This document shows positions 522 through 34,449 of a DNA stretch of 64,000 bases, in pieces. Source of the stretch: Chlorobiota bacterium (GTDB lineage: Bacteria > Bacteroidota > Ignavibacteria > Kapaibacteriales > NICIL-2); contig JBGAKH010000002.1 in assembly GCA_044224515.1 (NCBI GenBank), forward strand, positions 355,817-419,816. Direction: 5' to 3'. Within the stretch, counting starts at the first letter, position 1. Each line of letters starts with the position of its first letter. Both the position numbers and the translations under genes were made by a program. A model generated the notes under the pieces. It did no database searches. It was not told where the DNA came from and saw only the letters and a program-made list of their open reading frames with translations.

Positions 522-1544
522 CTAGAGGCGGATAAACTCGACTCTTCTATTCTGAGCTTTAGCCTCGACCGAGCTTTCTTTCACTAAAGCTTTGGTACTG
601 CCATATCCTTTCGAGATGAGCTGCTCGGCTGCAACTCCACGTTGAATCAAGGCGGCTTTCACAGCGTCGGCACGAGCTTGGGAGAGAATCATGTTTGCCT
701 GAGCGTTGCCGTCACTGTCTGTATGACCTTGGATTTCGTATCGAGATTCGGGCACTTCCTTGAGCTTGTCTGCGATGTCGTTCAAGAGTGTTTCAGACGA
801 CTTCAGCAGCGTTGATTGTCCCACCTCGAAATGCAAGGCATGACTAATGTAGCGTCCACCTTTCCATTGCGTTCCCAGTTCAGCCCTTCCACCTCCGTTG
901 GCAATACGGAAGTTCTTAAAGAGCATGCTCATGTTCGATGAAGCGTCGCCAACGAGCAGTAGTGAAGTGGGAGATTGATTCCATGCCGGCGAGGATAGCA
1001 CAAACTCATGGTTGCAAAACACCTTGAGAACATTGTCTTCGAACTGCAGTTCTATGTGATGCCATCGGTCATAATACAACTCGTGCACAACACTTGCTGG
1101 CGTTGGAGTACTCACACGGTTGGAGCCCAGAGTTAGACTAAACTCATCGCGGTTCGGCGTGAAATGCGCAATCTCTGCTTTACCCATGAAGATCAGCGAA
1201 ACTCCCGGATTTCCATCGTAACCGGCAGCCAACCAGGTGTCGAATTCAATGGTCCATCGCTTCCCAAGAACACTCTTTGATTTCATCTTGGGCGACATTT
1301 TCGTGTAATACTGATCGATTGACACACAACGCTCGTTGGCGTTGAGGATAACCGAAGCCTTACCTCCAAGAATCTTCCAGCCGGACGGAGCTGAGCTGAG
1401 CGCGTCCAAGGGACGATCGTCGAACAGTGTGGAGTCTCCGGGAACAAAATCATAGTGTGTCTCGCTTGATTGCGCTTGACCGATAACGCGTCCCATAAAA
1501 ATCAAGGGAAATAGAAGCATGATGGTTCGTAGTGCAATACGCAT
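522..1544 (-). CDS. OmpA-family protein: N-terminal signal peptide and a C-terminal OmpA/MotB peptidoglycan-binding domain
   Basis: Signal peptide MRIALRTIMLLFPLIFMGRVIGQAQS. The C-terminus RYEIQGHTDSDGNAQANMILSQARADAVKAALIQRGV...NRRVEFIRL is a canonical OmpA-like domain. Start set at ATG 1544; the ORF track extends it upstream to 1625. Confidence 0.7.
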   Translation of the reverse strand: MRIALRTIMLLFPLIFMGRVIGQAQSSETHYDFVPGDSTLFDDRPLDALSSAPSGWKILGGKASVILNANERCVSIDQYYTKMSPKMKSKSVLGKRWTIEFDTWLAAGYDGNPGVSLIFMGKAEIAHFTPNRDEFSLTLGSNRVSTPTPASVVHELYYDRWHHIELQFEDNVLKVFCNHEFVLSSPAWNQSPTSLLLVGDASSNMSMLFKNFRIANGGGRAELGTQWKGGRYISHALHFEVGQSTLLKSSETLLNDIADKLKEVPESRYEIQGHTDSDGNAQANMILSQARADAVKAALIQRGVAAEQLISKGYGSTKALVKESSVEAKAQNRRVEFIRL

Positions 1545-1655
1545 ACTGTATAGACTGATAATGAAAGATGCGATTCGAAATTGGTTATATTGAACGGCGA
1601 CGGAAAGGACAAAACATCCGCCCACTTTCCGTCTTCAACACTCCGAATTCACTAC

Positions 1656-3002
1656 ATGATTGCTGAGCTTATTGCCTCCCTTAGCGAAGCGGAGCGCCGC
1701 AGCCTCGAGCTAAAGATTGCTGCCAAGCCGACGCAGTTACATCTTTTTATAGGCGAGTTGCTTCGCAACCCGCAGGCCACACAGAAAGAACTTCAAGAGA
1801 AGCTCGGCTTGGCATCCAACACGGTCTTTAAAAACTTAAGTCTAGCCAAGGACGAGATCTACGAGGTCATCAAAGAACATTTGCGCAATCCTTACGATGA
1901 TCTGCTGCTGCCAAACCTCCTCTACAAACGAGGCTTGGGAACGCACGCGTCTAAACTGCGCATCAAGCTCGAGCAACAGTATGACCAACAAGGCTGGTGG
2001 AATGTCTTACAAGAATTCTACAGCATGGAGATGATTGTCGCTTATGCTGCCTGCGATATTCCGTGGCTCAGCGAGTTGCGAGACAAAGCAGCCAAAAACA
2101 TAGAGCGCATGCGTGAGTTGGTGCTCGTGGGAAATGACATCATTGTCCTCATGGCGACGGTTGAGAAAGGCCGTCTGCTGGAAAAAGAGGTACCTGCTCT
2201 CGTGAAGAAACTCCGGGCTGCTTTGAAGCGCGCACAAAGTTTGGATCACCCTGTGCCAATTTTCAACGCCCTGCATTCACTCTTTGTCATCCATACCCAA
2301 TACCTGATTGATGTCTCGAAGGCTAACGATATCATGAGCACGGTGCATGACTTAGTCAACAACTATGATGAGCGACTGATTCCCTATGCACGAAACGTTG
2401 CGTGGCTCAATACCATGGGCTTCTATGCAGAGTTTAATGTGGGCATATCTCCGGAGCAGTTTATCAAGAAAGCTGAGTCGGGAATTGCGAGCAGAAGTTT
2501 GCTCTTTGATGCTCAGGCTCTCTTGAGTATTTGCAGTTACCACTTTTTGGAGCGTGATGTAAAGCGCTTCGATGAAGCATTTAAGCGTTATACCGACCTC
2601 CCTTCTGAACAGAGCTTTGGTTACAAGAAGAACTATTTGAGCTGTCTTCATTCCTATCTTCACAATGACAGCGCTGAGTTTCAGCGACAACGCAATGAGT
2701 TCTATGCCCAAGAAGAGAATCGAGCCTACTCGGATTATGACCTTATGATCCGCTATCTGGAGATCTTGACCATCTTGAATCAGAAGCAATTTGAACTCGC
2801 AGAGGACAAACTGGAAGCAGCGAAAAAATTCGTCCGACGTCATTTCAGCGAGTCGCGCATCAAGCACGAGAAACACAATTGGGACCTGCTCACTTCGGCC
2901 ATGGGACTCAAAGCGAAGAGTTCTACCGCAGAACCGGTTTTCCGAGTGACGCGCTTTCTACAAGCCGAAATGCGCAGCAAGAAGACGGGTAAACCATCAT
3001 AG
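1656..3002 (+). CDS. Putative transcriptional regulator: N-terminal helix-turn-helix followed by a long all-helical (TPR-like) domain
   Basis: The segment ATQKELQEKLGLASNTVFKNL looks like a classic HTH. The remainder is predicted helical with no catalytic motifs. It is paralogous to the product of 32763..34181 (shared N-terminal pattern LSEAERRSLELKIAAKP versus LSPDVRRRLPESVKLSS). Start chosen at ATG 1656. Confidence 0.4.
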   Translation: MIAELIASLSEAERRSLELKIAAKPTQLHLFIGELLRNPQATQKELQEKLGLASNTVFKNLSLAKDEIYEVIKEHLRNPYDDLLLPNLLYKRGLGTHASKLRIKLEQQYDQQGWWNVLQEFYSMEMIVAYAACDIPWLSELRDKAAKNIERMRELVLVGNDIIVLMATVEKGRLLEKEVPALVKKLRAALKRAQSLDHPVPIFNALHSLFVIHTQYLIDVSKANDIMSTVHDLVNNYDERLIPYARNVAWLNTMGFYAEFNVGISPEQFIKKAESGIASRSLLFDAQALLSICSYHFLERDVKRFDEAFKRYTDLPSEQSFGYKKNYLSCLHSYLHNDSAEFQRQRNEFYAQEENRAYSDYDLMIRYLEILTILNQKQFELAEDKLEAAKKFVRRHFSESRIKHEKHNWDLLTSAMGLKAKSSTAEPVFRVTRFLQAEMRSKKTGKPS

Positions 3003-3390
3003 AAGAAGGGATGCGAGCGCCGCATGACCACCTTTGTTCCGGCCCCGTCGGCAGAGCCTTTTTGAGCATTTTGGCAGGATATCACAACGACAGCAGACAT
3101 TCTCCCGACCGGTGGTGTGGCCCGCTATGCATGGTGTACCGGAGTTTTGGACAGTGCCGGGTCTATGACGACATCGACTAGAGTCCGTATCGGTTTATAG
3201 TGTGCAACTTCAAACTCCGGTAGAGAGTCGGCCAACTTTGCAACACTAGCATTACGACAAACGACTCCTTTGCCCCACCTTGAAATAGACTCATGTCTGC
3301 ATCGCGACTGAAGACAAGGTGCTCAGACAGCGGAAAAATGTCTATTTTCGTTACGCAGCATCACTATCGCACCACGCGTATCATAGCGGC

Positions 3391-5577
3391 ATGGTTCGAC
3401 GTCTCAAACCCTTTCCTTTTATTAAACAACGTGACATGACAGAGTGTGGAACCACCTGTCTGGCCATGGTGTTTAAGTATTACGGACTTACCAATATTCA
3501 AGCGGCTCTGCGAGAGATCGCCGGTGTCAGCGCGCGCGGTTCTGATCTCTACACATTGTCACTGGTGGCCGAGCGCTTTGGCTTTCAAACGGAGGGGGCC
3601 CGGATCAAGTTTGATCATCTACAGAAGATCCCGCTGCCTTGTATCGCCCATTATGAGGGTAACCACTTTGTTGTTGTCTACAAAGCAACCGCGCACGATG
3701 TCTGGATTGCAGATCCGGCTTCAGACAAAGAACGACTGAGTAAAGAAGAGTTTCAAAGCAAGTGGAATGGAGTTGTCCTTGCATTGGATCCCGGAAAAGA
3801 AGTCTTTGCCTCGAAGGATGTTGTGGAAATCGCTGAACAGTATTCTCGGCGACAAAAGTTCGTCACTCGCGCCTTCTATTCCTCGCTGCTCTTTCCATTC
3901 CGAGCGGTTCTGCGCGACGTAGTCATCGCCTCTTTTGTCATGACCTTGTTGGCTTTGGCTCTGCCATTCTTGACACGCGTCGTTGTAGACAACGTACTGG
4001 TCTTCCAAAATCAAAACCTGCTTTACGCCATACTGCTGGCTATGCTGCTGGTTTTTGTGCTGCAGGTTGTGTTGACCTATGTGCGACATCTCCTATTCGC
4101 TCAAATGCGAATCGAGTTTGAGTTTGAGTTCTTCAGTCGCTTCTTTCGACACTTCACACAACTCACACAAGCCTACTTTGATTCTCACAAAAGGGAAGAC
4201 TTCGTTCAGCGCTTTCAAGAGAATCTCAAGATCCGCAACCTCTTCAGTGCCGGAACTCTGCAGTCTGCCCTTGATGTTGTTCTCCTTTTCATACTGATAC
4301 CGGTTCTTTTTAGCTTTCATACATCTCTAGCACTGTGTGCCACAGCTTTCCTCTTTGCGTTTATTGTGGCGACCGTGATTTTTACACCACGCATTCGTCG
4401 CCTGCAAGAAAAAGTCTTTCATGAAAACGCTAAGACAATGGGGTCGTTTCTCGACTCTTTGATTGGTATGCCGACTATTAAACTCCTCTCGGCAGAAACG
4501 CTGAAGTATTGGGAATGGCGGCACGTTTATAAACGCGCCCTCAACAAAGTCTTAAGCGCCTCTCAAAGCCAGATCATGCTCAATTCGGTTCTGCGCACGA
4601 TCATCTTTAGCGGACAAGTCAGCATGTACTGGTATGGAGCTTATCTGAGCTTTCATGGCGAGCTGAGTATCGGCCAATACATTGCGTTCATCAGCATATT
4701 CAGTATGATGATGAATGCGGCAAGCACAGTCAGCGACTTATGGTTTGTGATTACCGACCTTAGTGTGACCTTTGCCCGTTTGAACGACGTGTTTATGCAG
4801 GAGCCGGAGAACGCAGATCTGGCAACGCAGCTCACCGAACTCCATGGGTCGGATATTGAGATCTCCTCGCTCACATTCTCCTACGACGAGAGCGACCATG
4901 TGGCACTTCGTAACATTCAGCTACGTATCGCCGCAGGTGAGCATATCGGTGTGGTCGGACGCAACGGTAGCGGTAAAACGACTCTTGCGAAGTTACTGGT
5001 TCGACTCTATGATAACTATCAAGGTTCTATCAGCATTGGTGGAACAGAGTTGCATAATCTGCATCCGCAGTACCTGCGACAAAAAGTCGCAATGATTCCG
5101 CAAGACGTGCATCTCTTTAATGGAACCATTCGCGACAACATCGCAATGGCGCGTCCCGATGCTACTATGGATGAGATTATTGAGGCTGCACGAAAAGCAG
5201 AGCTGCATGATTTTGTCAGCAGCATGTACCTAGGCTATAATCAGAAGATCGGTGAAAGCGGATCGGGTCTCAGTGGTGGTCAACGTTTGCGCATCGCCTT
5301 TGCTCGATTGTTCTTGACGAATCCGGATATTATTATTCTCGACGAAGCAAGTTCGGCGCTGGATGTCATTGCCGAACAGAAGATCATGCAGCGGGTACAC
5401 GAACATTTTAAGAGCGCCACCATTATCTCAATCGCACATCGATTGAGCACCTTGCAAAAAGCTGATCGTATCGTTGTTCTCGACGCTGGTCAACTCGTTG
5501 AACTTGGTACACACGAAGAACTCGTGCAGAAACAAGGTACCTACTTCCGTTTTGTAAAAACCTATGTCGACTTCTAA
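3391..5577 (+). CDS. ABC transporter with N-terminal C39 (double-glycine) peptidase domain; bacteriocin/peptide-exporter type, ATP-binding plus permease
   Basis: C39 catalytic Cys context QRDMTECGTTCLAMVFKYYG with a downstream His (IAHYEGNHFVVV). Six-TM core. Walker A GRNGSGKTT, ABC signature LSGGQRLRIAFAR, Walker B IIILDEASSALD. Start at ATG 3391 (MVRRLKPFPF...) preferred over the GTG at 3319. Confidence 0.8.
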   Translation: MVRRLKPFPFIKQRDMTECGTTCLAMVFKYYGLTNIQAALREIAGVSARGSDLYTLSLVAERFGFQTEGARIKFDHLQKIPLPCIAHYEGNHFVVVYKATAHDVWIADPASDKERLSKEEFQSKWNGVVLALDPGKEVFASKDVVEIAEQYSRRQKFVTRAFYSSLLFPFRAVLRDVVIASFVMTLLALALPFLTRVVVDNVLVFQNQNLLYAILLAMLLVFVLQVVLTYVRHLLFAQMRIEFEFEFFSRFFRHFTQLTQAYFDSHKREDFVQRFQENLKIRNLFSAGTLQSALDVVLLFILIPVLFSFHTSLALCATAFLFAFIVATVIFTPRIRRLQEKVFHENAKTMGSFLDSLIGMPTIKLLSAETLKYWEWRHVYKRALNKVLSASQSQIMLNSVLRTIIFSGQVSMYWYGAYLSFHGELSIGQYIAFISIFSMMMNAASTVSDLWFVITDLSVTFARLNDVFMQEPENADLATQLTELHGSDIEISSLTFSYDESDHVALRNIQLRIAAGEHIGVVGRNGSGKTTLAKLLVRLYDNYQGSISIGGTELHNLHPQYLRQKVAMIPQDVHLFNGTIRDNIAMARPDATMDEIIEAARKAELHDFVSSMYLGYNQKIGESGSGLSGGQRLRIAFARLFLTNPDIIILDEASSALDVIAEQKIMQRVHEHFKSATIISIAHRLSTLQKADRIVVLDAGQLVELGTHEELVQKQGTYFRFVKTYVDF

Positions 5578-6764: not shown

Positions 6765-7772
6765 ATGCCGAGACGTCGCTTTTTGACCGGTCTTGGTTGG
6801 ACGTTGGGCGCAGGAGGCATTGGATTTCTCGGTCTCACAAGCATCGGTGGAGTGCAAGCACAAGGTCTGCTGAATATCGTGCGAAGCGCATTGACGCATA
6901 AACACAAGGTCGACAACCAGCCACCTGCACTTGCGGTACACACACGGAGTTTTGCTTCGGAGCAATGTGTAAAGTGTTTGGTTCTGGGTGATTGGGGTAC
7001 CGGTGATGCGTTTCAAAAGCGAGTGGCTCAAGCGATGGCAATAGTTGCCGAACGGGAGCATCCGCAGTTTGTCATTAGCACAGGAGACAACTTCTATCCT
7101 AGTGGAGTTGAGTCGGCCGAAGACAAACAATTTCAGACCAAATGGAAAAACGTATATAACGCCTCCTCGCTGAACATCCCATGGATTGTAAGTCTTGGAA
7201 ACCATGATTATCGCAAGAGTGCGGAAGCACAAATAGCCTATTCAAAGAAGGACTCCATGTGGCTTATGCCTGCTCGGTATTATACCATCCGGCGTCAGGA
7301 AGGAGAGATAAGCTGCGAGGTCTTTGTGTTGGATACCGAGGGATTGGTTCACGGTTCCAAAGCCGAAATCCGCACCCAACTCGAGTGGTTTGAACAGTCT
7401 TTGAAGTCTTCGAACGCGATGTGGAAAATTGCGGTAGGTCACCACATGATTCGCTCTCACGGTGCCTACGGTGACCAATCGTTTATGCTCAATTTGGTAA
7501 AACCCTTGCTTGACCGGTATGGAGTACAGGTCTACCTGAATGGTCATGACCACGATCTGCAATATTTGAAAGCGCCGGAAGACAGCTTCATATGCGTGAT
7601 ATCGGGTGCAGGAGGGGGGGCTAGAAATACTTCGTATGGAAAAAATACGCGTTTTGCTGCCACAAATGGCGGGTTTGTGTATCTGGCCGCAACCAAATCT
7701 GTGCTTCACCTCGAGTTCTACAACGCTGAGTCGGAAGCTTTGTTCGCAGAAGATGCGGTACGACGAGGCTAA
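6765..7772 (+). CDS. Tat-exported calcineurin-like metallophosphoesterase (purple acid phosphatase / ACP5-like)
   Basis: Twin-arginine motif MPRRRFLTGLGWTLGAGG. Metallophosphatase motifs GDWGTGD, GDNFY, GNHDY, GHHM, GHDHDLQY. An internal G7 run lies at 7614..7620. Confidence 0.75.
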   Translation: MPRRRFLTGLGWTLGAGGIGFLGLTSIGGVQAQGLLNIVRSALTHKHKVDNQPPALAVHTRSFASEQCVKCLVLGDWGTGDAFQKRVAQAMAIVAEREHPQFVISTGDNFYPSGVESAEDKQFQTKWKNVYNASSLNIPWIVSLGNHDYRKSAEAQIAYSKKDSMWLMPARYYTIRRQEGEISCEVFVLDTEGLVHGSKAEIRTQLEWFEQSLKSSNAMWKIAVGHHMIRSHGAYGDQSFMLNLVKPLLDRYGVQVYLNGHDHDLQYLKAPEDSFICVISGAGGGARNTSYGKNTRFAATNGGFVYLAATKSVLHLEFYNAESEALFAEDAVRRG

Positions 7773-7797
7773 AGTGCGATCAATCTATGAGGAAAGA

Positions 7798-7806
7798 GGG
7801 GGGGGG
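7798..7806. repeat. Homopolymeric G9 tract in the intergenic region upstream of the GT2 gene
   Basis: Direct read: ggaaagaggg|ggggggctat gives nine consecutive G at 7798..7806. A second G7 lies inside the phosphatase ORF at 7614..7620. Confidence 0.8.
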
Positions 7807-8073
7807 CTATATTGCTGGTGCATCGGCTGGGTCCTACTCGTACCTAGAACTCATCCTCGAGTATATGCAGAATGATTGCCCGCTTGTTCGATGAGCAGCA
7901 CAGGTGTAGCACCGTAGGGCTTATTGAATAGCTCATGAGCTCTTGGAAGCTTGCAAACTGGTCCATTTGTTGCATACTCTGCGTATGTACGCTATGTTAG
8001 TGTGCGTGCCGGCAAGTGCACTTCAACGGAATGAGCAGGCCGAACAACAAGTATCACCCAGGAAATCAGCCAC

Positions 8074-9493: not shown

Positions 9494-10342
9494 ATGATTT
9501 CTCGCATCCTACGTACCACCGTAACGCTTGTAGCGTTTCTGAGTTCAGTGCTGCTGACAGCGCAGGATCAAACGATACCTGCCATTGCCGTGCCTGCACA
9601 GATCACGACAACGGCAAAGAGTCAGACCATCGTGAAGGGCGCATCAAACAACGACTACTTCAAACTTGAGCTTGGATTCAGTGCCATGTTTTTGGGTGCT
9701 GATCAAGGTGCAACCAAGTCGATCTTCTTGCCCAAGAACGATACTGCTTATGTAACCGGATCCAGCTTTTTCGGCGCACAATCCGGCTTAAGTGTGCGCG
9801 CCAACTTTGAATTAGGCGCGAACAAACGTATCAACATCCCTGTCGGCATCGACTACACCTTCTTTAGCGGCTCACAGCGTTTGCCCTCAGCTACAATCAT
9901 TCAGCACGGCAATGTCAGCGTGAATGTGTTGACCTTGGTTGCGGGTGGACAGTACCGTCTTGTAGACTTGCCACTTGCCAACGCATTTCTCTACGCCGGA
10001 GCTGAGCTTCGCGAGTCCTATTGTCCCGGACCTCGTTTTATTTATGAAGAGTCAGACACACTCGACCCCAAAGTGAGTCATGTGGTGATGGACTCAACAC
10101 TTAAAAGTGATGTCTTCCGCTTTGGTGGAGCACTGCGCTTTGGCTGTCAAGGGGAACTCAGTGATGCTTTGTGGATCAACGTCAACGTTGCCTACGGAAT
10201 CAACAACCTTCTTGGACGTGATGATCGCAGTAGCGGCCCTGAGCGTCGCGGACAACTTCTTACCCCTTCTCGTGTAAACGAGACAAACGAAGCTTTCTCA
10301 AAGTTCCTGCAGTTTGGTATTTGGCTGCAGTATCGTCTCTAA
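9494..10342 (+). CDS. Secreted hypothetical protein, probably an outer-membrane beta-barrel
   Basis: Signal peptide MISRILRTTVTLVAFLSSVLLTAQDQT. Alternating beta-strand-like pattern, G/aromatic-rich, C-terminus ...FGIWLQYRL. No enzymatic motif. Confidence 0.4.
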   Translation: MISRILRTTVTLVAFLSSVLLTAQDQTIPAIAVPAQITTTAKSQTIVKGASNNDYFKLELGFSAMFLGADQGATKSIFLPKNDTAYVTGSSFFGAQSGLSVRANFELGANKRINIPVGIDYTFFSGSQRLPSATIIQHGNVSVNVLTLVAGGQYRLVDLPLANAFLYAGAELRESYCPGPRFIYEESDTLDPKVSHVVMDSTLKSDVFRFGGALRFGCQGELSDALWINVNVAYGINNLLGRDDRSSGPERRGQLLTPSRVNETNEAFSKFLQFGIWLQYRL

Positions 10343-10344
10343 CC

Positions 10345-11439
10345 ATGTCTGACTTGCTCCCGGTCTATAAACGCGACTGCATCCATTTCCGTGGCGATAT
10401 TCCTTGCGCTCCTCATAAAAGCACAGGTGTCCACTGTGAAGATTGCCTGCATTATCATTCTCAAGTTGGTTCGATCCTCATTATCAAACTTGGTGCAACC
10501 GGAGATGTCATTCGCACGACGCCTTTGCTGCACAAGCTGTTGAGCGAATATCCCAATCATGCCATCCACTGGCTAAGCTACTCTCCGGAAGTAGTTCCTT
10601 CGGTCGTGCACAAAGCGATGCGCTTCAATGCCGAGTCGTTGTTGACCATTGAGGAAACACCCTATGATCTGCTTATCAATCTGGATAAGGATCCGCAAGC
10701 CTGCGCATTGGCGAATCGAGTAAAGGCCGGACGAAAGTTGGGTTTTGTGCTTCGTGATGGCAAACCGGCTCCTGCAAATCCGGAAGCGGAACACAAGTTT
10801 TTGACAGGTTTGTTCGACGACGTCAACCAAGCCAATACAAAATCATATCCTGAAGAGATATTTGAAATCTGCGGGTGGACTTTCAACGGCGAGGAGTACA
10901 TCCTGGATCGTCCGAAGTCAAACCGCTTTATGGATATGCGCAATGGTCGACATGTAGTTGGCCTCAACACAGGCTGCGGTGAACGATGGACGTCACGTCG
11001 CTGGCCTGAAGAATACTGGATTGAGCTCGTGCGCACACTCACGCACAAGGGTTATACCCCCTTACTTCTGGGTGGAAAGCAAGAACATGAGTTCAATACA
11101 CACCTTGCTGCCTCAAGCGGCGCTATGTACTACGGACACTTTCCGATGGATGAGTTCATTGCCTTGATGGACTCATGCGATACGGTAGTTACGACCGTAA
11201 CCCTCGCTATGCACATCGCCATTGCTCTCAGCAAGAATGTGGTACTCATGAACAACATCTTTAACCCCAAAGAGTTTGAGCTGTATGGAAGAGGCCGCAT
11301 CGTGGCACCGGCCAAGGAATGTCACTGCTTCTTCCGAGGCACCTGTACAAACGCCGAGTACTTCTGTATGAACACTTTGAGTCCGTCCATGATTATGGAC
11401 GCCATCTCGACATCGCACGCTCATCATCAGAAAGTCTGA
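10345..11439 (+). CDS. GT9-family glycosyltransferase (LPS heptosyltransferase-like) with Cys-rich N- and C-terminal extensions
   Basis: GT9 hallmark ILIIKLGATGDVIRTTPLL...LLINLDKD...GCGERWTSRRWP. N-terminal CIHFRGDIPCAPHKSTGVHCEDCLHYH and C-terminal CHCFFRGTCTNAEYFC cysteine clusters. The start ATG 10345 overlaps the previous stop. Confidence 0.6.
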   Translation: MSDLLPVYKRDCIHFRGDIPCAPHKSTGVHCEDCLHYHSQVGSILIIKLGATGDVIRTTPLLHKLLSEYPNHAIHWLSYSPEVVPSVVHKAMRFNAESLLTIEETPYDLLINLDKDPQACALANRVKAGRKLGFVLRDGKPAPANPEAEHKFLTGLFDDVNQANTKSYPEEIFEICGWTFNGEEYILDRPKSNRFMDMRNGRHVVGLNTGCGERWTSRRWPEEYWIELVRTLTHKGYTPLLLGGKQEHEFNTHLAASSGAMYYGHFPMDEFIALMDSCDTVVTTVTLAMHIAIALSKNVVLMNNIFNPKEFELYGRGRIVAPAKECHCFFRGTCTNAEYFCMNTLSPSMIMDAISTSHAHHQKV

Positions 11440-11786
11440 AGAGTAAAACACGGAGCACACATCTATAGCTCAAGTGACGTCACGTTTTAAGTAGCTCCTC
11501 CGAAGGCGACGTCGCATGCGCTCATGTATCAAACGAGAGTGTTCTTTGTTATGCTCCGCTTCGCGGAGCCGGGTATTGCTTGCATTCTAAGCATCTAAGA
11601 ACATACTGAGACGAATGCAGCTTCAATCCTGTCGTTCGTACTGTCGGTTGTCAGTCTAGTAGTGCAGAGTCATCACCTGCGGATTTCGGTTCTTGAGCAC
11701 TTCTATTCAATAAACATTTGCTAGCTTGACTTGAAGGATTGTTCAGGGCGGAGAACCAATTGTAACACAACAACGAGGAGTCTACA

Positions 11787-12329
11787 ATGCTACTTGGTTT
11801 ATCATCGGGAGCGTTGGATCAGCGATTCGCAGCGCAGCGAGATTCTCTATGGTGTTGGGCTGCATCGTTACAGATGATTTTTCACCATTATGGTGTTCGA
11901 CTACCTCAAGAGCGTATTGTTAAAGAGGTGTTTGGTTCGACTCCCTGGGGTACGGCACCCAATAAACCGGCGGACTTCTTACACATAAGCAAGGTTTTGA
12001 ACAGGGGCGGAGTCGACAGTGTCGGACGACGTTTCCATGTAAAAAGTATGCTTATGCCGGGTGCTCCCAATACAGAAACGTTGGCTGAGGAGCTGTCTGC
12101 GCAGCGTCCTGTACTACTCAGTTACCAGAGTCGTCCGCGCATGAACCACGCCGTGGTCATCACGGCCATGGAACTAAGTGCACAACAGAATGGATTAGTC
12201 TTCAAGCGTATGGTTGTGAGAGATCCCAACCCCAAAGCGCAAAACCGGGCACTGAAAGGACGTCGAGAAGTGCGTCCGTCGACACTTCTGTCAAAAGCGG
12301 CTGCTCATTGGATCATCCGCGTTTGGTAA
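11787..12329 (+). CDS. Minimal papain-fold (clan CA, C1/C39-like) cysteine peptidase domain protein
   Basis: SLWCWAASLQM resembles the papain active-site CGSCWAFS. NHAVVITAM resembles the papain His motif HAVxxVGY. C-terminal HWIIRVW resembles YWIVKNSW. No signal peptide. Homology judged by eye only. Confidence 0.4.
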   Translation: MLLGLSSGALDQRFAAQRDSLWCWAASLQMIFHHYGVRLPQERIVKEVFGSTPWGTAPNKPADFLHISKVLNRGGVDSVGRRFHVKSMLMPGAPNTETLAEELSAQRPVLLSYQSRPRMNHAVVITAMELSAQQNGLVFKRMVVRDPNPKAQNRALKGRREVRPSTLLSKAAAHWIIRVW

Positions 12330-12592
12330 GTCAATCGAAACAAATGATTTAGAATTAGAAGAGAGAGGCTCTCGCGAGAGGATATTCTGCCGGGCAGATC
12401 ACAACATTCTCCGTGGAGCTACGTCATTCACTACATGAAGCTGTGGACAAAATTTAATCCACGCTCTTCTCGGAGATCATCTATCAGCGACGATCATTAA
12501 CTATTTTTGTCATCTCAACAGGGTCGAACGTGCAGGATAGTAATAGCTGTCTGAATTCGCACCCACGATATTCCAAAGCATTCGGAGAAACT

Positions 12593-12928
12593 ATGCAAGC
12601 TACTCAGCCTATTCACGTTACAGACGATTCATTCAAGACCGACGTCTTGGATTCCACCGAACCCGTACTCATCGATTTTTGGGCTGCATGGTGTGGTCCT
12701 TGTCGTATGATTGCACCGATCATGGACGAATTAGCCACTGAACTTGAGGGCAAGGTGAAAATCGCGAAGGTAGACGTGGACAACAATCCTCAAGTCTCAT
12801 TGGAATACGGCATTCGTTCGATTCCTGCCTTGTTGCTTTTTCACGGTGGCAAGGTTGTGGACAACATCGTAGGCTTGGTACCCAAGAACTACATTCTTGA
12901 GCGTTTGGAACCCTACATGAACAAGTAA
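12593..12928 (+). CDS. trxA: Thioredoxin
   Basis: WAAWCGPCRM active site, about 110 aa, thioredoxin fold pattern. ATG at 12593. Confidence 0.85.
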   Translation: MQATQPIHVTDDSFKTDVLDSTEPVLIDFWAAWCGPCRMIAPIMDELATELEGKVKIAKVDVDNNPQVSLEYGIRSIPALLLFHGGKVVDNIVGLVPKNYILERLEPYMNK

Positions 12929-12968
12929 AACGTGCCGGTGTCAATCATAAAGAGTACAGCACCAATGA

Positions 12969-13004
12969 AAAGGACCGCGAGCACTAGCTTCCGGTCCTTT
13001 TTTC
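12969..13004 (+). terminator. Rho-independent terminator after trxA
   Basis: Stem AAAGGACCG / CGGTCCTTT (9 bp) with a 14-nt loop, followed by TTTT. Confidence 0.6.
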
Positions 13005-13124
13005 GTTGTCTGTCTCCGTACTTTTGTAGCGCACGAATGCTTCATTCATAGAAGCAAGGCAGCCAAGAGGGCGCGCGCAGCGCGACCATAGTTCTTCATC
13101 TCTTTCATCTCTCGCAAGACTAAC

Positions 13125-13460
13125 GTGGCACGTCCTACACTTCTCACGACAGAACAGATTGAAGAACTACTGCGCGAGCATGCATTGTGGAGAAGCACGG
13201 ATGCGAGCATTCACCCTCAGTCGATCGTGCGTGAACTGCATGCGGTGGACTGGATGTCTGCTTTGGCATTGGTAAACGCCATAGCCATCGCGGCCGATAC
13301 CATGGATCATCATCCTGACATCTTCTTATACGGATGGAACAAGATTCGTGTCAGTATCAGCACACATGATCAAGGAGGATTGACACTCCTTGATTTTGCA
13401 TTGGCAACGAAAGTGGACGAATTGGCATTGCAGTCTGAGAACGCCCATAAGAACGACTAA
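13125..13460 (+). CDS. Pterin-4a-carbinolamine dehydratase (PCD/DCoH)
   Basis: EQIEELL...HALW...HHPDIFLYGWNKIRVSISTHD is the PCD signature. 111 aa. GTG start. Confidence 0.7.
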   Translation: MARPTLLTTEQIEELLREHALWRSTDASIHPQSIVRELHAVDWMSALALVNAIAIAADTMDHHPDIFLYGWNKIRVSISTHDQGGLTLLDFALATKVDELALQSENAHKND

Positions 13461-13524
13461 CAAGAACACGGGCTCGTGGTACAAGCACGAGCAGTATAAA
13501 ACAGCATCTTCTCACCAATCTTGA

Positions 13525-14808
<1,284 letters not shown>

Positions 14809-14840
14809 ACTTCCTACAAGCATTCAGTTTCCATAAGAAG

Positions 14841-14878
14841 AATCCCGTGTAGGCCCAAGCCCTGCTCGGGATTTTTTG
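14841..14878 (+). terminator. Putative terminator after eno
   Basis: AATCCCG...CGGGATT stem with a 19-nt loop, followed by TTTTTT. Confidence 0.4.
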
Positions 14879-15009
14879 TTGTTCGAGAATTCGGCTGAAG
14901 ATGTCTTCATTCTACAGTATCTTGAGTAGAACGTAGTGAGCTGCAAAGTGTACGGGCCAGGTACCTGCGGCTAATTCATGGTTTGTATCATTCTTAAAAG
15001 GGGTTTAGC

Positions 15010-15522
15010 ATGAAGCGATTTTTTATGCTTTCACTGGTCGTGTTGTTGACTCTTGCTTATACGAGTGCACGGGCAAGCGGACCAATCGATCAGGGTTCGT
15101 GGATCATCGATGGTAATGTCGGTTTGAACGCAAGTTTATCGGGTGGTGGCGGTACTACCATCTACCTCCAGCCATCTGCTATGATGTTTATCCAACAACG
15201 ATTGGCGTTGGGTGGGGACTTCATCCTGAATGCAGGGGGCGGTACTACAACATTTGGTCTGGTGCCTACGGTCGCCTACTTTTTTGGTGATACACGTGGC
15301 AAAGGATTCCCATTTATTCGAGGTGGACTCGGTTTCTCCAGTACAAGCAATGGCTCCGGTACAAGCTTTACTTCGGTTGACATCATGTTCGGAGGAGGTT
15401 ATGCACTGCTTATCAGCAAAGAAGTCTTCTTGAATTTCTCCGGTACCATGAATATCTACACGGCTGACGCCAGTGGTACGATTCTTAACCTCAATGGCGG
15501 CGTTGGTGTCTTCTTGTACTAA
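15010..15522 (+). CDS. Small outer-membrane beta-barrel (OmpW/porin-like) protein, Gly-rich
   Basis: Signal peptide MKRFFMLSLVVLLTLAYTSARA. Eight or so amphipathic strands, Gly/Thr-rich loops, C-terminal ...GVFLY aromatic end. Confidence 0.5.
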   Translation: MKRFFMLSLVVLLTLAYTSARASGPIDQGSWIIDGNVGLNASLSGGGGTTIYLQPSAMMFIQQRLALGGDFILNAGGGTTTFGLVPTVAYFFGDTRGKGFPFIRGGLGFSSTSNGSGTSFTSVDIMFGGGYALLISKEVFLNFSGTMNIYTADASGTILNLNGGVGVFLY

Positions 15523-15594
15523 ACATGTCGCAACAGGATAACCCTGTCCCTGTCGACACGCTCCACTGCACCGTCGTTCATCTATCCAGAAAAA

Positions 15595-15638
15595 CAAACC
15601 CTGCAACCAAATCAAGTTGGTTGCAGGGTTTCATTTTT
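15595..15638. terminator. Bidirectional Rho-independent terminator between convergent genes
   Basis: Perfect 15-bp stem AAACCCTGCAACCAA / TTGGTTGCAGGGTTT with a 6-nt loop. T-run on the plus side, A-run on the minus side. Confidence 0.8.
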
Positions 15639-15662
15639 TGTGATGATAGAGAAGCCAAGTGT

Positions 15663-16430
15663 TCAGTCGTCCGACACGTCTGACCGCAGTGCACTGTCCC
15701 TGAACGGGGAGTTGATTTCGTGAATCTTCATTGCTTTAAACGCCAGAGCCACTGCGATACTTAGCACCGCAATCGCGCCGAAGGCAATAAGGCCCGGTCG
15801 ATCCAAGAAGATGAAAAAGTCATACAGTCCGTGGGCTACTACGGCAGACATCAAAGCAGTAAACATCAGAGCGGTACGATCGCGGGCAAACTTTGCCAAT
15901 CCCATGAAGTAGCCCATGAACACGGCGTTGGCTGCGTGCGCGGGAACAGCGGTGAACATGCGACGAAGAGCGATGTTCACGGGATCACCGATACGATTAT
16001 CGAAGACGTAGAGTAAGTTTTCCAAGGTCGCAAAGCCCATTGCAATCATCACCGAGTAAGTGATACCGTCGAATGGTTCATTGAAGTCTCGTTTATTCCA
16101 CGCGAGATAGCGTAGCACCATATACTTCGAGAGTTCTTCGCTCAGAGCAACCACAAAGAAGGCATGAACAAAAATCGTAAAGACATTAAGGGACTTCTGA
16201 AATCCGAGACGTTCGATGCCTAATTGGATGGCAACAGGAGGCACAATTGAGACCATGCCAGCAATGAAGCAGGCTGCAAGTAAAGCGTGAGGCTCGCGCT
16301 CGTGACGGTCACGACGATACACAAGGTATGCAATGAGGATGCCCGGAAGAACACTCAAAGCAACTTGGGCGAAAATGTCCCAAAACGAGTTGTTCCAGAA
16401 TAGGTCTTCAATCATCACGGGCAATGCCAC
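15663..16430 (-). CDS. prsW: PrsW-family intramembrane metalloprotease
   Basis: Multi-TM protein with the EExxK (LSEELSKY), FATLENLLY and HGLYDF motifs of PrsW/M82. An alternative start is the ATG at 16415. Confidence 0.7.
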   Translation of the reverse strand: MALPVMIEDLFWNNSFWDIFAQVALSVLPGILIAYLVYRRDRHEREPHALLAACFIAGMVSIVPPVAIQLGIERLGFQKSLNVFTIFVHAFFVVALSEELSKYMVLRYLAWNKRDFNEPFDGITYSVMIAMGFATLENLLYVFDNRIGDPVNIALRRMFTAVPAHAANAVFMGYFMGLAKFARDRTALMFTALMSAVVAHGLYDFFIFLDRPGLIAFGAIAVLSIAVALAFKAMKIHEINSPFRDSALRSDVSDD

Positions 16431-16436
16431 AGCATG

Positions 16437-17543
16437 CTATGCTCTGGCCACTCCATCGGTTGGACGTACGACTTGACTGACTTCCTGCACAATGTCGTCT
16501 GCCGTGTTTTTGGCACTTTCAGCCAAAGCTTCGGCACGTGATGCAAGAACTTCCGCTGATTCCTCCAATTTGTGTTTAGCGTGTGCGGCTACTTCTTCTG
16601 CAGAGTGCAATGCTGCATTGGCGAGTTCACCTGCACTATGAGCAACGTCATGCACTGTTTCTTGCATGCTCTTTGATACAGCAACCATACCTTCTGCAAA
16701 ACGCTGCTGCATTTTCTCTTTGGGAATACGTACCACATTCGTGGCAAGGTGAAGCTTTTCTAAGATGCGGATCACGTAGGCGCTGACATCGATCTGCCAC
16801 CACTTCATACCATGAAAAGCGCTGGTAGGAAAAGCATGGTGATTGTTATGCCAACCCTCACCCATTGCCAAGATGCCAATGATCATACTGTTGCGACTTT
16901 GATCTGTGGTGTTGAACATGCGTCCACCAAAAACGTGACACCATGAGTTCACGCACCATGTCACATGCGAGGTCAAGAATATGCGCACGAGTCCGCCCCA
17001 GAGGAGTCCCTCCCAGCCACTCACAGCAAAGGGTATGGCTAAACCAAGTATTGTCCACAGATGAAATGTCTTATCAAAAAACAGTGCCATGCGATCGTTC
17101 TCAAAGCGCTTTCCGAAACGGGAACGAATGGCATTCACATCTTCAAAACTCATGTCCATCATCCACTCGAAATGCGCATGAATGAAACCCAGCACTGTCG
17201 GACTATGTGGATCGCCTTCTTCATCCGAGTAAGCATGGTGCTTGATGTGTACAGAGGCCCAGGAAATTGCGGGACCTTGTAGGGCCATGGATGCACCTGC
17301 CAAGAACAATGCACGAATAGCCGGATGTGGTACAAAACTGCGGTGTACCAACATGCGATGATAGCCAACCGTCACGCAGAGTTGGATAAGTGCCGCATAG
17401 ACAAGCGCGAAAAGCACAGGAAACTGTGCTGAATGTCCGTTTAGAAGCTCCCAGATTGCAAAGGCAGTACCCAGAGCCGGGACAATGACAAGGAAACCGA
17501 CGTATAAATAACTAATATGCAGTCTTTGGCGTGTGGAACCCAT
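16437..17543 (-). CDS. Membrane fatty-acid (acyl-lipid/acyl-CoA delta-9 type) desaturase with about 100-aa helical C-terminal extension
   Basis: Three His boxes HRMLVHRSF, HIKHHAYSDEEGDPHSP, HNNHHAFP. The C-terminal tail (AEEVAAHAKHKLEESAEVLASRAEALAESAKNTADDIVQEV) is amphipathic and apolipoprotein/LEA-like. Confidence 0.8.
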   Translation of the reverse strand: MGSTRQRLHISYLYVGFLVIVPALGTAFAIWELLNGHSAQFPVLFALVYAALIQLCVTVGYHRMLVHRSFVPHPAIRALFLAGASMALQGPAISWASVHIKHHAYSDEEGDPHSPTVLGFIHAHFEWMMDMSFEDVNAIRSRFGKRFENDRMALFFDKTFHLWTILGLAIPFAVSGWEGLLWGGLVRIFLTSHVTWCVNSWCHVFGGRMFNTTDQSRNSMIIGILAMGEGWHNNHHAFPTSAFHGMKWWQIDVSAYVIRILEKLHLATNVVRIPKEKMQQRFAEGMVAVSKSMQETVHDVAHSAGELANAALHSAEEVAAHAKHKLEESAEVLASRAEALAESAKNTADDIVQEVSQVVRPTDGVARA

Positions 17544-27867: not shown

Positions 27868-30800
27868 ATGCGTCCCCTCTACGTATTGCTTCTTGTAAGC
27901 ACACTACTGAGTGCTGCTATCGAAGCTCAGAACTACAAGTGGAACTATTTCAACAAACTCAATTACCCGCGACGAAACTACCCTGCTCAAAATCATTGTG
28001 CCGTATTCGACGATTGCAAAGTACTTGTCGCGGGAGGCTATGTTGGAGGTAGTTCCTCAACATTCGGGCAGCCGACGAAAAAGTGTGAGATCATCAATGT
28101 TTGTTGCTCCAATGTGACTCTAACCGGGGATATGGTCATACCTCGGGCCGAGCACATCCTCTTGACAACACCGGATTCAAACGTAATTGCTATTTCCGGT
28201 ATCACGCAAGTGACTAACGAGAACAATTTCACTGGCACGCACACTACGACGGTGGAACTCTACACTCGGGCTACAGGTACTTGGTCAACCATAGGTAACA
28301 TAAACACAGCAAGAAGGCAGGGTCAAGGTGTTTTTATCAGTAGTCACGAAGTCTTCATTATCGGTGGACGCATTGAGGATCTCTCTACGCTCGGCTCTGC
28401 TGAGATCTTCGATCTAAACACAGGCACAAGCACCAATGTAGCCAATGCGCCTATGCCGATAAACATGCACGTTGTCGGTATTGCAAGTAATGGAGATGTT
28501 ATCATTGCTGCCGGACGAAATGGCGGCACCGATGCCACGCGAACACCTAACATTTATCGATACAACCGTTCAACCAACACCTACACTCAAGTTGGTACGT
28601 TGCCCTCAGCAGTTCGTTCTCTTGCCCTACGAAAAGTCTTCGACGGACGTCTGCTAATGAGCGGAGGATTGATTAACGAATCCAGTCCGCAGATTTCCAG
28701 TTATATCGAAATAGAAAACAGCGGTAGCTACTCTCAACTGGGAAGTTCGTTGCAACCACGATGGGGTCATGGAATTGGACAAATCAATAATGATTCCTGT
28801 ATAGTCTTTGGCGGTGGTGGAACGACACTTCTTAATACGCGAGCAGAGTGTGATTGGATCAATGTGTCTACAAATCAAGTCAGTGCGGGACCGTCGCTTC
28901 CCAAAGGTCTTGCAAGCTTCAACTATGCATCTGTACCACTGAGTAAGAACTCAAGCGGACAAGTCCTTGCATCCGCAGTGCTAGTGATAGGTGGTGTGAG
29001 TGGTGCCAGCGAAATGCAAAAGGAAACCCCACGCGACACAATCTTCATCCTCCGCCGCTGCAGCGTTCCCGACTCCATTAAAAGTCAGACTGTGACAAGC
29101 GAATGTGCAACTGTACGACTATATATCGACTCCTTGTATCGCTGTTTGACTCCTACCCTTATCCGTTGGTCGTTTGGTGATAGCACCTACACGCAGACAT
29201 CTCCATGGTCCACCACACATACCTATCCGCGCAAAGGGACGTATGTGGTGAAGGCTACGTTGGTGTATGCGAATTGCGCAGACTCAGTGGTTCTGCAACA
29301 GAATGTAACGATTACAACGGGTGCAAACATTGTGTCATCACCTCGCACGATTGTAAAATGTGCAAAGGACTCCGTTGTGCAGTTACACGCTAGTGGTGGA
29401 GTACGCTATCTCTGGTCGCCGGGCAGCGGTTTAAGTGATTCTACGAGTGCGAATCCTATTGCACGACCTACAAAGGACACGAAATACATAGTCTACGGCT
29501 GGTCTGCGGATAGCTGTCGAGGTGTTGACTCTGTGTTCGTTCGAGTAAGCTCCGGACGTGCCAATGCCGGACCGGACAAGTCGATGTGCGGTCAGGGCGA
29601 CTCCGTTGTCCTCGTAGCTTTGGCTGATACCAAGATTCGTTCCGTGAAATGGACACCGAAGACCGGATTGGATTGCGACACCTGCCTTGTTACAAACGCC
29701 AAACCAACGGTCACTACCAATTATGTCGTCACTCTCGTTGACACCAACGGATGTGTTCTCTACGATACTGTAAAGGTGAGCATTAGAGCCGGATCTGCAG
29801 CTCGCATTGCCGGTGGACCCATTATGAATATCTGCTCGAGCTCAGACTCTGCTTTGCTCTCGCTGACAACGAAGGGTGGAGTGCGAAGCGTACGCTGGAC
29901 TCCAAATGTTGGGTTGTCATGTGATAGCTGTTTTAGCACCAAAGCGCTACCGAAGACCGCGGTGACTTATAAAGTGTTGATCACAGACTCAAGTGGCTGT
30001 ATAACGGTCGACAGCATACAGGTTACTGTCAATAAAACATCAAATCAGATTCAATCAGGTGCGCCCCAGTACATATGCTTCAAAGGCGACTCAGCCGTAC
30101 TTTCTGTTTCCGGAAAAGTGAAAGGTATTCTTTGGTCTCCTTCCACCGAAGTCTCGTGTTCTACCTGCACATCTACTCGCGTCAAACCTCCGACCACTCG
30201 CTTCTTTAGGTACAATGCCGTTGACAGTGCGGGTTGTTACTTCAGCGATTCGATTAAAGTTACGGTGTTGCCAAAGTCAACAGTCGATATTGCTCCGGAT
30301 ACGAGCGTGTGTGGCTCAACAGCTATTCTGCTCAACGTGTATGGACAATATCAGAACATTAACTGGACGCCTACCGGCGGTTTAAGCTGCACGAACTGCC
30401 CAACCGTCCTGGTAAACCCAACACCGGGTAAAACCATTACCTATTATGTTACTTCGCACAACGGAAATAGTGCTGACTGTGATAATCGTGACTCTATTAC
30501 CGTTCGCTTTGCACGGGGTATCGATGGACAGCTTAAGGATCAAGTAATCTGTCCGGGTGATTCTCTTAGCGTCACGCTGCGTCCTTTTGGTGGACACATC
30601 CTCTGGAATAGCTCACCTGATATTTCATGTGATACCTGCAGAAGCATCACCATAAAACCGACTAAAAACGGAAAGTATATTGTCACGGGAGACTCACTGG
30701 GATGCATATCCCGTGATACCTTCCTTGTTACACTTGCTCCAACTACACTCTCGGTTCCTAAGACTCTCAGTGCATGCGCCGGACAACGAGTCATGATGGG

Positions 30801-32762: not shown

Positions 32763-34181
32763 TTACACTTTAGAAGTGTCGACGGTGCTCGTTTTCGGGA
32801 GACGGCTCTTGTACTTGTTCCAACACAACAATTGCATCATGTTGAAGATGTCGACAGAACAATGATGCAAGGAGTTATAGTAGTCGCGATCCGCGCTTCG
32901 AAGGGCAGTGTGTTGCTCTACGGCTTTGAGAAGAGTGCGGAGATGTCGAAACTCGGAACGCCACAGCTCTGCATCGCGAATATCTTTCTTGGTAGCAAAG
33001 TATCGTAGCGACCTGGCAATGAGCTCAAGGGCATAGAAACTGTCACCACTGAGAGCAAAGGATACACATTCTAAAAATCGGAGCTCGGCCTCAACGCCTC
33101 TGTACACTTTGACCGACATAGCAAGTCCGGCGCTGATGAACTTTAGGGCCATGTCCGTATTACCCGTGTAGAGATAATACATGGAAAAGTCGGTAGCATC
33201 CATAGGCCGCATCAAGTCTTTCCCGAGTATGGCCATAGTTCCGAAGCGCATCTTTAGAATCTGCTCGGCCTTGCGCAGCTTGCCGGACATCAAGAGAATG
33301 CGGAAGTAGTACAGATTCAACTGTCCATTGCGACGATAAATCTCAGGATTTTCCTCCCACACTGCCTCGCATTGTTGCAATGCTTTGTCCAATCCGTCCA
33401 AATGAAGATAGGTCTCCGCAAGTGATCCACGTACAACATAGCGCGCCTCAGGATAGATGGTAGGGTTTGCAATGAGGATATCCAAAGCGCGTTCCCACCA
33501 CAGCACGACGTTTTCAAGTCGGGAGGTGGCAGTGTAAAGCTGCGCCAAGGCTCGACACAGAACGATTTGAGACTCGGGCCACTTCTTGGATTTGATTGTT
33601 CTCCACGTCTCCAACAGCTCCTTTTCGTAGGGAGCCAAAATCTCATCGCGCTCGCCCTTGATGTAGTGAATCACGATCTCTCGGATCATGGTTCGAATGC
33701 GCACAAGGTAGGGTGCCTCAGGACTCTTAGCCACGCTGCGGTAACGCTTACATATTTGAGTCCATATTTTCTCCTGAAAGATTCGTGCTTCAAACAACAA
33801 ATAGCTGTTAACTGCCGTATGATACAACTGCTCCATATCGTCTGCTGCAGCATCGCGACGGTATTGTCGATCCCGCTTTGCCAGCTCGTGCACATAGTTC
33901 TCATGCAATCCACTCTTTGCCAAGATGTGAAAGATGCTCTCGCGTTGGAGCTCGGAGATGTACTCATACGACCGAGATAAGATCACACTCGCGCATTTGT
34001 CAAAGTGCGCAATGGTCATACTAAGCTCAGACGGTAGCTCGCGTGCATCACGTAAGCGGTCGGCAGCATCGATGTGTGACACTAACACCCTCTGCTCAGT
34101 ACTACTGAGCTTCACGGACTCAGGCAGACGTCGACGTACATCGGGTGAAAGGGAGGTCAGAAATTCGCTCAAATAACTCAT
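32763..34181 (-). CDS. Putative HTH-containing helical-repeat regulator; paralogue of 1656..3002
   Basis: Same size and N-terminal pattern as the 1656..3002 product (LSPDVRRRLPESVKLSSTEQRVLVSHI). All-helical. Start at ATG 34181; the track begins at a TTG at 34235. Confidence 0.4.
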   Translation of the reverse strand: MSYLSEFLTSLSPDVRRRLPESVKLSSTEQRVLVSHIDAADRLRDARELPSELSMTIAHFDKCASVILSRSYEYISELQRESIFHILAKSGLHENYVHELAKRDRQYRRDAAADDMEQLYHTAVNSYLLFEARIFQEKIWTQICKRYRSVAKSPEAPYLVRIRTMIREIVIHYIKGERDEILAPYEKELLETWRTIKSKKWPESQIVLCRALAQLYTATSRLENVVLWWERALDILIANPTIYPEARYVVRGSLAETYLHLDGLDKALQQCEAVWEENPEIYRRNGQLNLYYFRILLMSGKLRKAEQILKMRFGTMAILGKDLMRPMDATDFSMYYLYTGNTDMALKFISAGLAMSVKVYRGVEAELRFLECVSFALSGDSFYALELIARSLRYFATKKDIRDAELWRSEFRHLRTLLKAVEQHTALRSADRDYYNSLHHCSVDIFNMMQLLCWNKYKSRLPKTSTVDTSKV

Positions 34182-34449
34182 CGTGTGGGCAAACGGTTTG
34201 TCGACGGAAGTCTCAACTGCATACAGCGAGCCCAACGATGTTTCGCGGCATCGTCAACGGCCCGGTAAGAATAGAAGCAAAATCGGATTTTTTTCGCCTT
34301 GTCACTGCTCGAATTTCGCCCGCCGTCCGCAACGCTCTTCAAGGTCGGCAATAAATGAAGGTTTGAAAGAGCATCCGATGCATCTGCCTCGACACCCCGG
34401 GGCGCGCATCATTCGGACACCACACCATTCTTCAGAGGAGAGGACCCAC

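Follow-up and report, generated by a model that had tools for sequence, protein, structure and literature searches.

Two Highly Divergent Helix-Turn-Helix/TPR-Like Proteins of a Chlorobiota Bacterium, Putative Local Regulators of Exported-Protein Genes

Regulation of surface and secreted proteins in the Bacteroidota is known mainly through pairs of extracytoplasmic function (ECF) sigma and anti-sigma factors, hybrid two-component systems and PorXY. Here, we analyzed two genes, designated A and B, that lie in a 64,000-bp stretch of DNA from a Chlorobiota bacterium (GenBank assembly GCA_044224515.1, contig JBGAKH010000002.1, positions 355,817 to 419,816; hereafter, the window). Their products combine an N-terminal helix-turn-helix (HTH) domain with a C-terminal tetratricopeptide repeat (TPR)-like domain, and we propose, with a probability of roughly 60%, that they are one-component, locally acting transcription regulators, usually of envelope or secreted-protein genes. 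A design that joins an HTH to TPRs is itself familiar from the RRNPP receptors, the MalT/LAL regulators and the ECF42 sigma factors, and for that reason the finding is a modest one.

The RRNPP receptors (Rap, NprR, PlcR and AimR and, more loosely, Rgg and PrgX) use an XRE-type HTH, whereas the HTH of A and B is like those of sigma region 4 and LuxR. Unlike RRNPP genes, A and B have no adjacent propeptide gene (no plausible small open reading frame [ORF] was seen downstream of A), and B and many homologues of A lie less than 25 bp from convergent genes. The lineage also differs, being the Fibrobacteres-Chlorobi-Bacteroidetes (FCB) group rather than the Firmicutes or their phages, and no sequence similarity to RRNPP receptors was detectable. 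Compared with MalT and the LAL regulators, A and B lack the STAND/NTPase domain, carry the HTH at the N terminus (the reverse order) and are about half the size; only their sensor-like TPR domain resembles domain III of MalT. The ECF42 sigma factors, which together with their TPR extension have reportedly been discussed in a published paper (PMC8999054), share with A and B the fusion of a sigma-region-4-type domain (a predicted one in A and B) and TPRs in one protein. In A and B, however, there is no sigma region 2, no sigma factor was found among the full-length fold matches, the sigma-region-4-like domain is N terminal, and the TPR domain is much larger. Because they lack sigma region 2 and have a TPR-like superhelix after the HTH, A and B cannot be complete sigma factors. 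The LuxR/GerE effector domains of response regulators (DesR, DevR, EvgA and EsrB) are alike in fold only, and A and B have no receiver domain.

Relationship between A and B

Gene A (positions 1656 to 3002, plus strand) encodes 448 amino acids within an ORF that spans positions 1581 to 3002, and gene B (positions 32763 to 34181, minus strand) encodes 472 amino acids. Both ORFs were confirmed at the coordinates given in a preliminary description of the window, and the common length of about 470 residues claimed there is right for B, with A being shorter. The ATG at position 1656 encodes the residue at which 28 of the 30 homologues begin (MI-x-EL-I...), and MSYLSEFL, beginning at the ATG at position 34181 on the minus strand, matches the first position of nearly all relatives; both starts are supported, since homologues begin at the same residues. 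A stretch of the form L-[ST]-x-x-E/D-x-R-R-x-L is present at residues 8 to 20 of both proteins, reading SLSEAERRSLEL in A and SLSPDVRRRLPE in B, so the LSxxxRRxL pattern noted previously is real. It is underlain by a conserved motif, L-[ST]-x-x-E-x-x-x-L, whose E13 is at least 90% conserved across 60 N-terminal domains.

The preliminary description called A and B a paralogous pair and proposed a pairwise alignment as the check. That alignment detected no significant similarity (BLASTP E = 0.20 over a 126-residue N-terminal alignment with 22% identity), which by itself goes against the claim. A direct comparison of the A family (30 sequences) with B and two close homologues (3 sequences) using hhalign also was not significant (E = 0.25), and word-indexed database searches from A and from B each failed to retrieve the other protein. 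These values would be expected if A and B were unrelated helical proteins, alike only through their length and alpha-helical, TPR-like composition.

A different picture was obtained through intermediate sequences. The three-sequence B profile was used for an exhaustive hidden Markov model (HMM) search of 1.84 billion cluster representatives (E up to 1e-3), and this retrieved 142 proteins, nearly all of 430 to 490 amino acids and matched end to end. A MAFFT alignment of 117 full-length matches from among these 142 served as the superfamily profile. When compared with the A family by hhalign, it matched with a probability of 98.8% and E = 6.9e-17 over 417 collinear columns; reversing either alignment reduced the probability to 6 to 10% (E of about 0.003 to 0.006), and the match was unaltered when three sequences that are also detected with the A profile were dropped. 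The N-terminal domains matched each other independently (96%, E = 4.5e-9), as did the C-terminal domains (96.8%, E = 2.9e-10), and neither cross-domain control (N versus C or C versus N) gave a match. The superfamily HMM recognized 28 of the 30 A-family proteins, the A protein of the window scoring 36.5 bits. Among the 127 ORFs of at least 100 amino acids in the window, it picked out A and B only; it did not match genuine TPR proteins in the flanking loci, and it found no further family members in the window or the locus flanks. A word-indexed search with the same 117-sequence alignment retrieved four proteins only.

Because the match through intermediates holds while the controls are negative, we regard A and B as homologous. 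That they are so, and that they share the two-part architecture, is very probable, and the idea that they are unrelated is effectively refuted by the full-length collinear match (about 7e-17, against the reversed controls), by the independent matches of both domains and by the selectivity of the superfamily HMM, despite the BLASTP and direct profile-profile values. The term paralogous pair nevertheless overstates the relationship: the two proteins are only about 12% identical and, as judged from these comparisons, are very divergent members of different subfamilies in one large superfamily rather than a recent pair. The two closest sequenced relatives, GCA_044228685.1 and GCA_039810585.1, each carry members of both subfamilies.

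The A subfamily comprises 30 cluster representatives with 41 to 62% identity (one has 31%), and its loci are from metagenome-assembled genomes that bear the labels Chlorobiota bacterium, Candidatus Kapaibacterium, Chitinophagaceae or Chitinophagales, and Bacteroidota. B belongs to a second subfamily, in which it has four close orthologues; this subfamily lies within a superfamily whose cluster representatives number at least 142 and are about 460 amino acids long. Counted as clusters at 50% identity, the superfamily has at least 142 members, to which the 30 of the A subfamily are added, and its carriers are bacteria of the FCB group, namely, Kapaibacteria-like Chlorobiota and Bacteroidota. No full-length curated family model in Pfam-A, NCBIfam, PADLOC or PHROGs covers A or B; NCBIfam gave no match, and PADLOC and PHROGs gave no meaningful ones. 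Members are named "hypothetical protein" or "TPR repeat protein" in the source records, and literature searches found no description of the superfamily. As far as curated libraries and the searchable literature show, the family, its domain order and its tie to divergent exported-protein genes are undescribed.

Domain architecture

Full-length A was modelled with AlphaFold2 on the 30-sequence alignment. The model is all-alpha, with 22 helices, a mean predicted local distance difference test score (pLDDT) of 89.3 and a predicted template modelling (TM) score of 0.80. The N-terminal domain (residues 1 to 112, positions 1656 to 1991, plus strand; pLDDT 93.7) contains a sigma-70-region-4/LuxR-like HTH in residues 1 to 75, followed by two linker helices. 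Within the HTH, a helix at residues 43 to 50 leads through the turn L-G-L-A into a recognition helix at residues 54 to 74. The corresponding HTH region of B (residues 1 to 78, positions 33948 to 34181, minus strand) is predicted from the N-terminal profile comparison (96%), and its turn and recognition helix read L-S-M-T-I-A-H-F-D-K-C-A-S. In the alignment of 60 N-terminal domains, a classical turn is followed by its recognition helix, together reading L-G-[ILM]-[ST]-x-x-[HT]-[FY]-x-K-x-x-S, for which the superfamily consensus is L-G-[ILM]-S-x-x-H-F-D-K-x-x-S. K59 and S62 are kept in 53 of the 60 sequences.

The fold matches listed for the N-terminal domain are mostly sigma-70 region 4 and LuxR-type domains, with SigW, SigR, BldN, SigH and SigF among them, and none of those listed is described as XRE type. 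A search against solved structures gave Fis, gamma-delta resolvase and FliA as sub-threshold matches. At the sequence level, Pfam Sigma70_r4_2, HTH_24 and GerE each matched weakly in a few of the 60 domains; GerE (PF00196) matched two of them, with a best E value of 0.013 that is below its curated threshold. The earlier statement that there is no LuxR box thus stands for sequence but not for fold, since the domain is sigma-70-region-4/LuxR-like. Pfam analysis revealed neither an ATPase nor a receiver domain in A or B, and sigma region 2 was likewise not found (Sigma70_r2 gave no match even with E allowed up to 10), in agreement with what had been said of the ATPase and receiver.

The C-terminal domain of A (residues 113 to 448, positions 1992 to 2999, plus strand) is a TPR-like helical-repeat domain, presumably a sensor or partner-binding module. 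A itself has no TPR sequence match and is TPR-like by model structure alone. B matches Pfam TPR_19 barely above the gathering score (26.1 versus 25 bits), and some superfamily members match TPR_14 above its cutoff. The fold matches of the A model include Rap of phage phi105 with its peptide (score, 18.8), MalT domain III (18.7), NprR with NprX (18.3), RapI (17.9) and AimR (17.4), as well as the eukaryotic scaffolds APPBP2 (18.6) and TONSOKU (17.8). Foldseek on the TPR-like domain returned generic TPR matches at low TM scores only. With fold matches at this generic level, the C-terminal region of about 340 residues can be placed only as a TPR-like solenoid, predicted to have the size seen in bacterial sensor domains, and nothing more specific can be said of it. 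The structure prediction that had been suggested as a second check gave, for A, a head of the DNA-binding HTH type on a TPR-like body.

Divergent neighbors and conserved spacer boxes

In order to describe the genomic setting, the loci of both subfamilies and of six more distant superfamily members were collapsed to 10 independent contexts. The regulator gene is divergent from its upstream neighbor in 9 of these, with spacers of 110 to 270 bp (binomial p of about 0.01 against a generous expectation of 50%), and the upstream neighbor is a signal-peptide protein or lipoprotein in 7. All seven of the latter are divergent. They comprise a signal-peptide protein with a domain of about 200 residues that belongs to no known family (window A, L009 and L010, with an added OmpA domain in the window); a signal-peptide protein with a type IX secretion system (T9SS) tail at the Chitinophagaceae A loci L004, L012, L013 and L018 (the gene is lost in L015 and L016); a lipoprotein (L017); an exported protein of about 315 residues together with a lipoprotein of about 185 residues (window B, L006, L022 and L023); two PKD lipoproteins and an M16 peptidase (L019); a PQQ beta-propeller with a signal peptide (L021); and a DUF6252 lipoprotein (L024). 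Pairing of homologues with outer-membrane or T9SS cargo genes had been suggested as a further check; a T9SS tail is seen in the Chitinophagaceae neighbor, and in three contexts (described below) the neighbor is not exported.

In the window, A and B are each divergent from a signal-peptide gene, as the preliminary description had it. The neighbor of A (positions 522 to 1544, minus strand) encodes 340 amino acids, with an N-terminal domain of about 200 residues and a C-terminal OmpA peptidoglycan-binding domain (Pfam E = 2e-21). Its N-terminal domain has an orthologue in the divergent neighbor in L001/L009 (53% identity), and a similar gene is present in L010. The orthologue in the closest relative (L001, positions 7225 to 7851) stops before any OmpA domain, so that the presumed target of A has either gained or lost a domain. 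The neighbor of B (positions 34450 to 35439, plus strand) encodes an exported protein of 329 amino acids, with a signal peptide read by eye and no Pfam match; it has orthologues in the same position in L006 (68% identity), L022 (48%) and L023 (42%). The second gene of this pair (positions 35805 to 36398, plus strand) encodes a putative lipoprotein of about 197 amino acids with the lipobox LAGC (its start codon is uncertain), and a counterpart with 30 to 37% identity follows the ~315-residue gene in L006, L022 and L023. The divergent pair of exported protein and lipoprotein thus is kept in four loci of the B orthogroup.

The spacers between these genes contain conserved boxes. The A spacer (positions 1545 to 1655) holds a bipartite box, AAGGACA-N13-CTTTC, at positions 1605 to 1631, which is kept in the window, L009 and L010 and is unique within the window. 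Chitinophagaceae A loci have AAGGACA-N13-CTTAC, despite only about 45% protein identity to the Kapaibacteria-like members. In L013, L018, L004 and L012 the box is about 15 to 45 nucleotides upstream of the regulator ATG; the Chitinophagaceae spacers carry an inverted version of its first half, TTGTCCTTT, about 60 nucleotides further towards the divergent gene, and L017 has two tandem copies of the box.

The B spacer (positions 34182 to 34449) holds a 28-nucleotide core, AAAAATCCGATTTTGCTTCTATTCTTAC on the strand of B, at positions 34265 to 34292, and a second box, GAAATTCG, near positions 34311 to 34318. Inside the core, at positions 34279 to 34291, is a perfect 13-bp palindrome, AAAATCCGATTTT, which emerged from the spacer alignment; a generic inverted-repeat search found nothing in the two spacers of the window and overlapping repeats in L006 and L022 only. 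The window, L006 and L022 share the core without a change, L023 has it nearly unchanged, and it is unique within the window. The four B-orthogroup spacers have diverged nearly throughout except for a block of about 54 nucleotides (positions 34265 to 34318), and the regulators that share this block are only 33 to 54% identical. Elsewhere in the superfamily, ATTCTTAC is found a short way upstream of the regulators in L021 and L024; neither it nor the CTTAC motif is present upstream of those of L019, L025 and L026, so that CTTAC is not universal.

A search of the window with Rfam matched a tRNA only and gave no match to the spacer blocks, which therefore are not known RNAs. FCB promoters are not known to follow the sigma-70 consensus, and, as expected from this, a scan for sigma-70-type promoters and terminators was uninformative. 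For factors that act locally and regulate themselves, operators or promoters, or elements serving as both, would look like these boxes, which we treat as candidates.

The spacing of the A-family box resembles that of a two-element promoter, although neither element fits the sigma-70 consensus, nor is either known to fit the Bacteroidetes one. In a distinctly unlikely extension of the model, the family would consist of FCB-specific, stand-alone sigma-region-4 modules joined to a TPR sensor, each a signal-gated reader of the -35 element in trans or a class II activator. The -35-like box would be subfamily specific, namely, AAGGACA located 13 nucleotides upstream of a common CTT[AT]C for A and, for B, a ...TCCGA... 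block equally far from CTTAC, and the promoters served would be those of secreted and outer-membrane protein genes. If true, this would be a mode of promoter recognition undescribed for the Bacteroidota. A variant in which the TPR domain senses a peptide would, if true, be the first RRNPP-like communication system outside the Firmicutes.

Downstream of A by 316 bp, on the same strand, is a gene for a C39-peptidase ABC exporter of the bacteriocin/peptide type (positions 3319 to 5577, plus strand). Its position, together with the size of A and B (450 to 470 amino acids) and an order of N-terminal HTH followed by TPRs that matches NprR and AimR, would fit cytoplasmic RRNPP-like receptors, in which the TPR groove binds a re-imported secreted peptide that toggles the HTH, as a form of Gram-negative quorum sensing. 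We consider this very unlikely. The exporter is absent beside all other A-family genes and was rejected as a functional partner of A for this reason, and the gap between A and the exporter contains no small ORF resembling a GG leader. No small propeptide-like ORF adjoins A or B; the downstream gap to a convergent gene is less than 20 bp in L002/L011, L004 and other Chitinophagaceae loci, and the stop codon of B is 23 bp from that of its convergent neighbor. The HTH is of the sigma region 4/LuxR fold, and RRNPP receptors score no higher than generic TPR proteins against the C-terminal domain. RRNPP systems are described in the literature as belonging to the Firmicutes and their mobile elements (PMC10075063). 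The RRNPP interpretation, attractive structurally, thus fails because the HTH class, the adjacent propeptide gene and the lineage all differ.

Proposed function and other features of the loci

Most superfamily members stand back-to-back with exported-protein genes and therefore probably are local gene switches. In the model that we favor, the regulator would be a cytoplasmic protein with an N-terminal four-helix domain of the sigma-70-region-4/LuxR fold, containing the HTH L-G-I-S-x-x-[HT]-[FY]-x-K, and a TPR-like superhelix of about 340 residues. The HTH would bind a subfamily-specific box in the short spacer shared with a divergent gene or small operon, usually encoding signal-peptide or lipoprotein products, and the regulator would be switched when its TPR domain binds a ligand, a peptide or a partner protein. 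The protein would thus control the neighboring gene set and probably its own promoter too. DNA binding, the regulatory targets and the signal are what we infer here. The suggestion that A and B may be dedicated to the regulation of envelope or secreted proteins has comparative support from the divergent arrangement, the exported neighbors, the four-locus B pair and the boxes, with three departures from the exported-neighbor rule.

Several observations weigh against this model. Sequence matches to HTH families are nearly all below curated cutoffs, the sole one above being HTH_24 on the isolated N-terminal domain of A (23.0 versus 21.9 bits). Sigma region 4 and LuxR domains usually are basic, but the N-terminal domain is not, having a mean net charge of about 0 over the 60 members (-1 in A and -2 in B). 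The structure model covers A only. The TPR domain resembles generic eukaryotic TPR scaffolds at least as well as it does sensor TPRs. Three contexts are exceptions to the exported-neighbor rule, none of their neighbors being exported: L011 and L025 are divergent from genes for a DUF1835 protein and an Asp_protease_2 protein, respectively, and L026 is co-directional with a PAS histidine kinase gene. The p value of about 0.01 for 7 exported neighbors in 10 contexts takes about 30% of proteins to be exported, a base rate that is our estimate and not a measured one. Finally, the boxes are not common to all subfamilies, and they could be promoter elements for another factor rather than operators.

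With a head domain of neutral net charge, A and B might instead be TPR scaffolds or adaptors that do not bind DNA, whose sigma-region-4-like head would contact RNA polymerase or another protein, for example, as a sigma or anti-sigma mimic or as an assembly factor for envelope proteins. The sub-threshold HTH scores are consistent with such a role, and TPR domains typically are protein-protein modules. On balance it is unlikely: the classical HTH signature is kept, with its L-G-I-S turn and a near-invariant K and S in the helix; a divergent arrangement with subfamily-specific boxes is typical of local DNA-binding regulators; and neither a sigma region 2 domain nor a partner of the anti-sigma kind is consistently nearby.

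The analysis delimits a sizeable unnamed family with a two-domain architecture, a predictable target (the divergent neighbor) and candidate operators. In Chitinophagaceae and in Kapaibacteria-like genomes, it offers triplets (regulator, operator, target) that can be tested directly, as well as a new family for annotators.

The convergent neighbor of B is an adhesin gene (positions 27868 to 32739, plus strand) encoding 1623 amino acids with Kelch repeats, PKD and a CHU_C-associated Ig_7 domain. Its C-terminal tail looks like a T9SS sorting signal by eye, although Por_Secre_tail was not matched at E of 1e-3 in Pfam. B had been described as abutting the 3' end of this adhesin gene, and the two stop codons are indeed 23 bp apart; the adjacency is incidental, however, and because it is not conserved at orthologous loci, the adhesin was rejected as a target of B.

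Some further features of the loci were observed. In L008 (GCA_039810585.1, positions 6879 to 7700), the B orthologue has neither the conserved divergent pair nor the spacer block; instead, a repeat of about 430 bp occurs twice between it and an MraY-like gene. The tRNA gene that was the sole Rfam match in the window is at positions 57443 to 57517 on the plus strand. In L006 (GCA_044228685.1, positions 9851 to 17000), a phage-type integrase and several insertion sequence elements (IS21 helper, rve and ISL3) are directly downstream of the B orthologue, so that in this genome the B locus borders on a mobile region.

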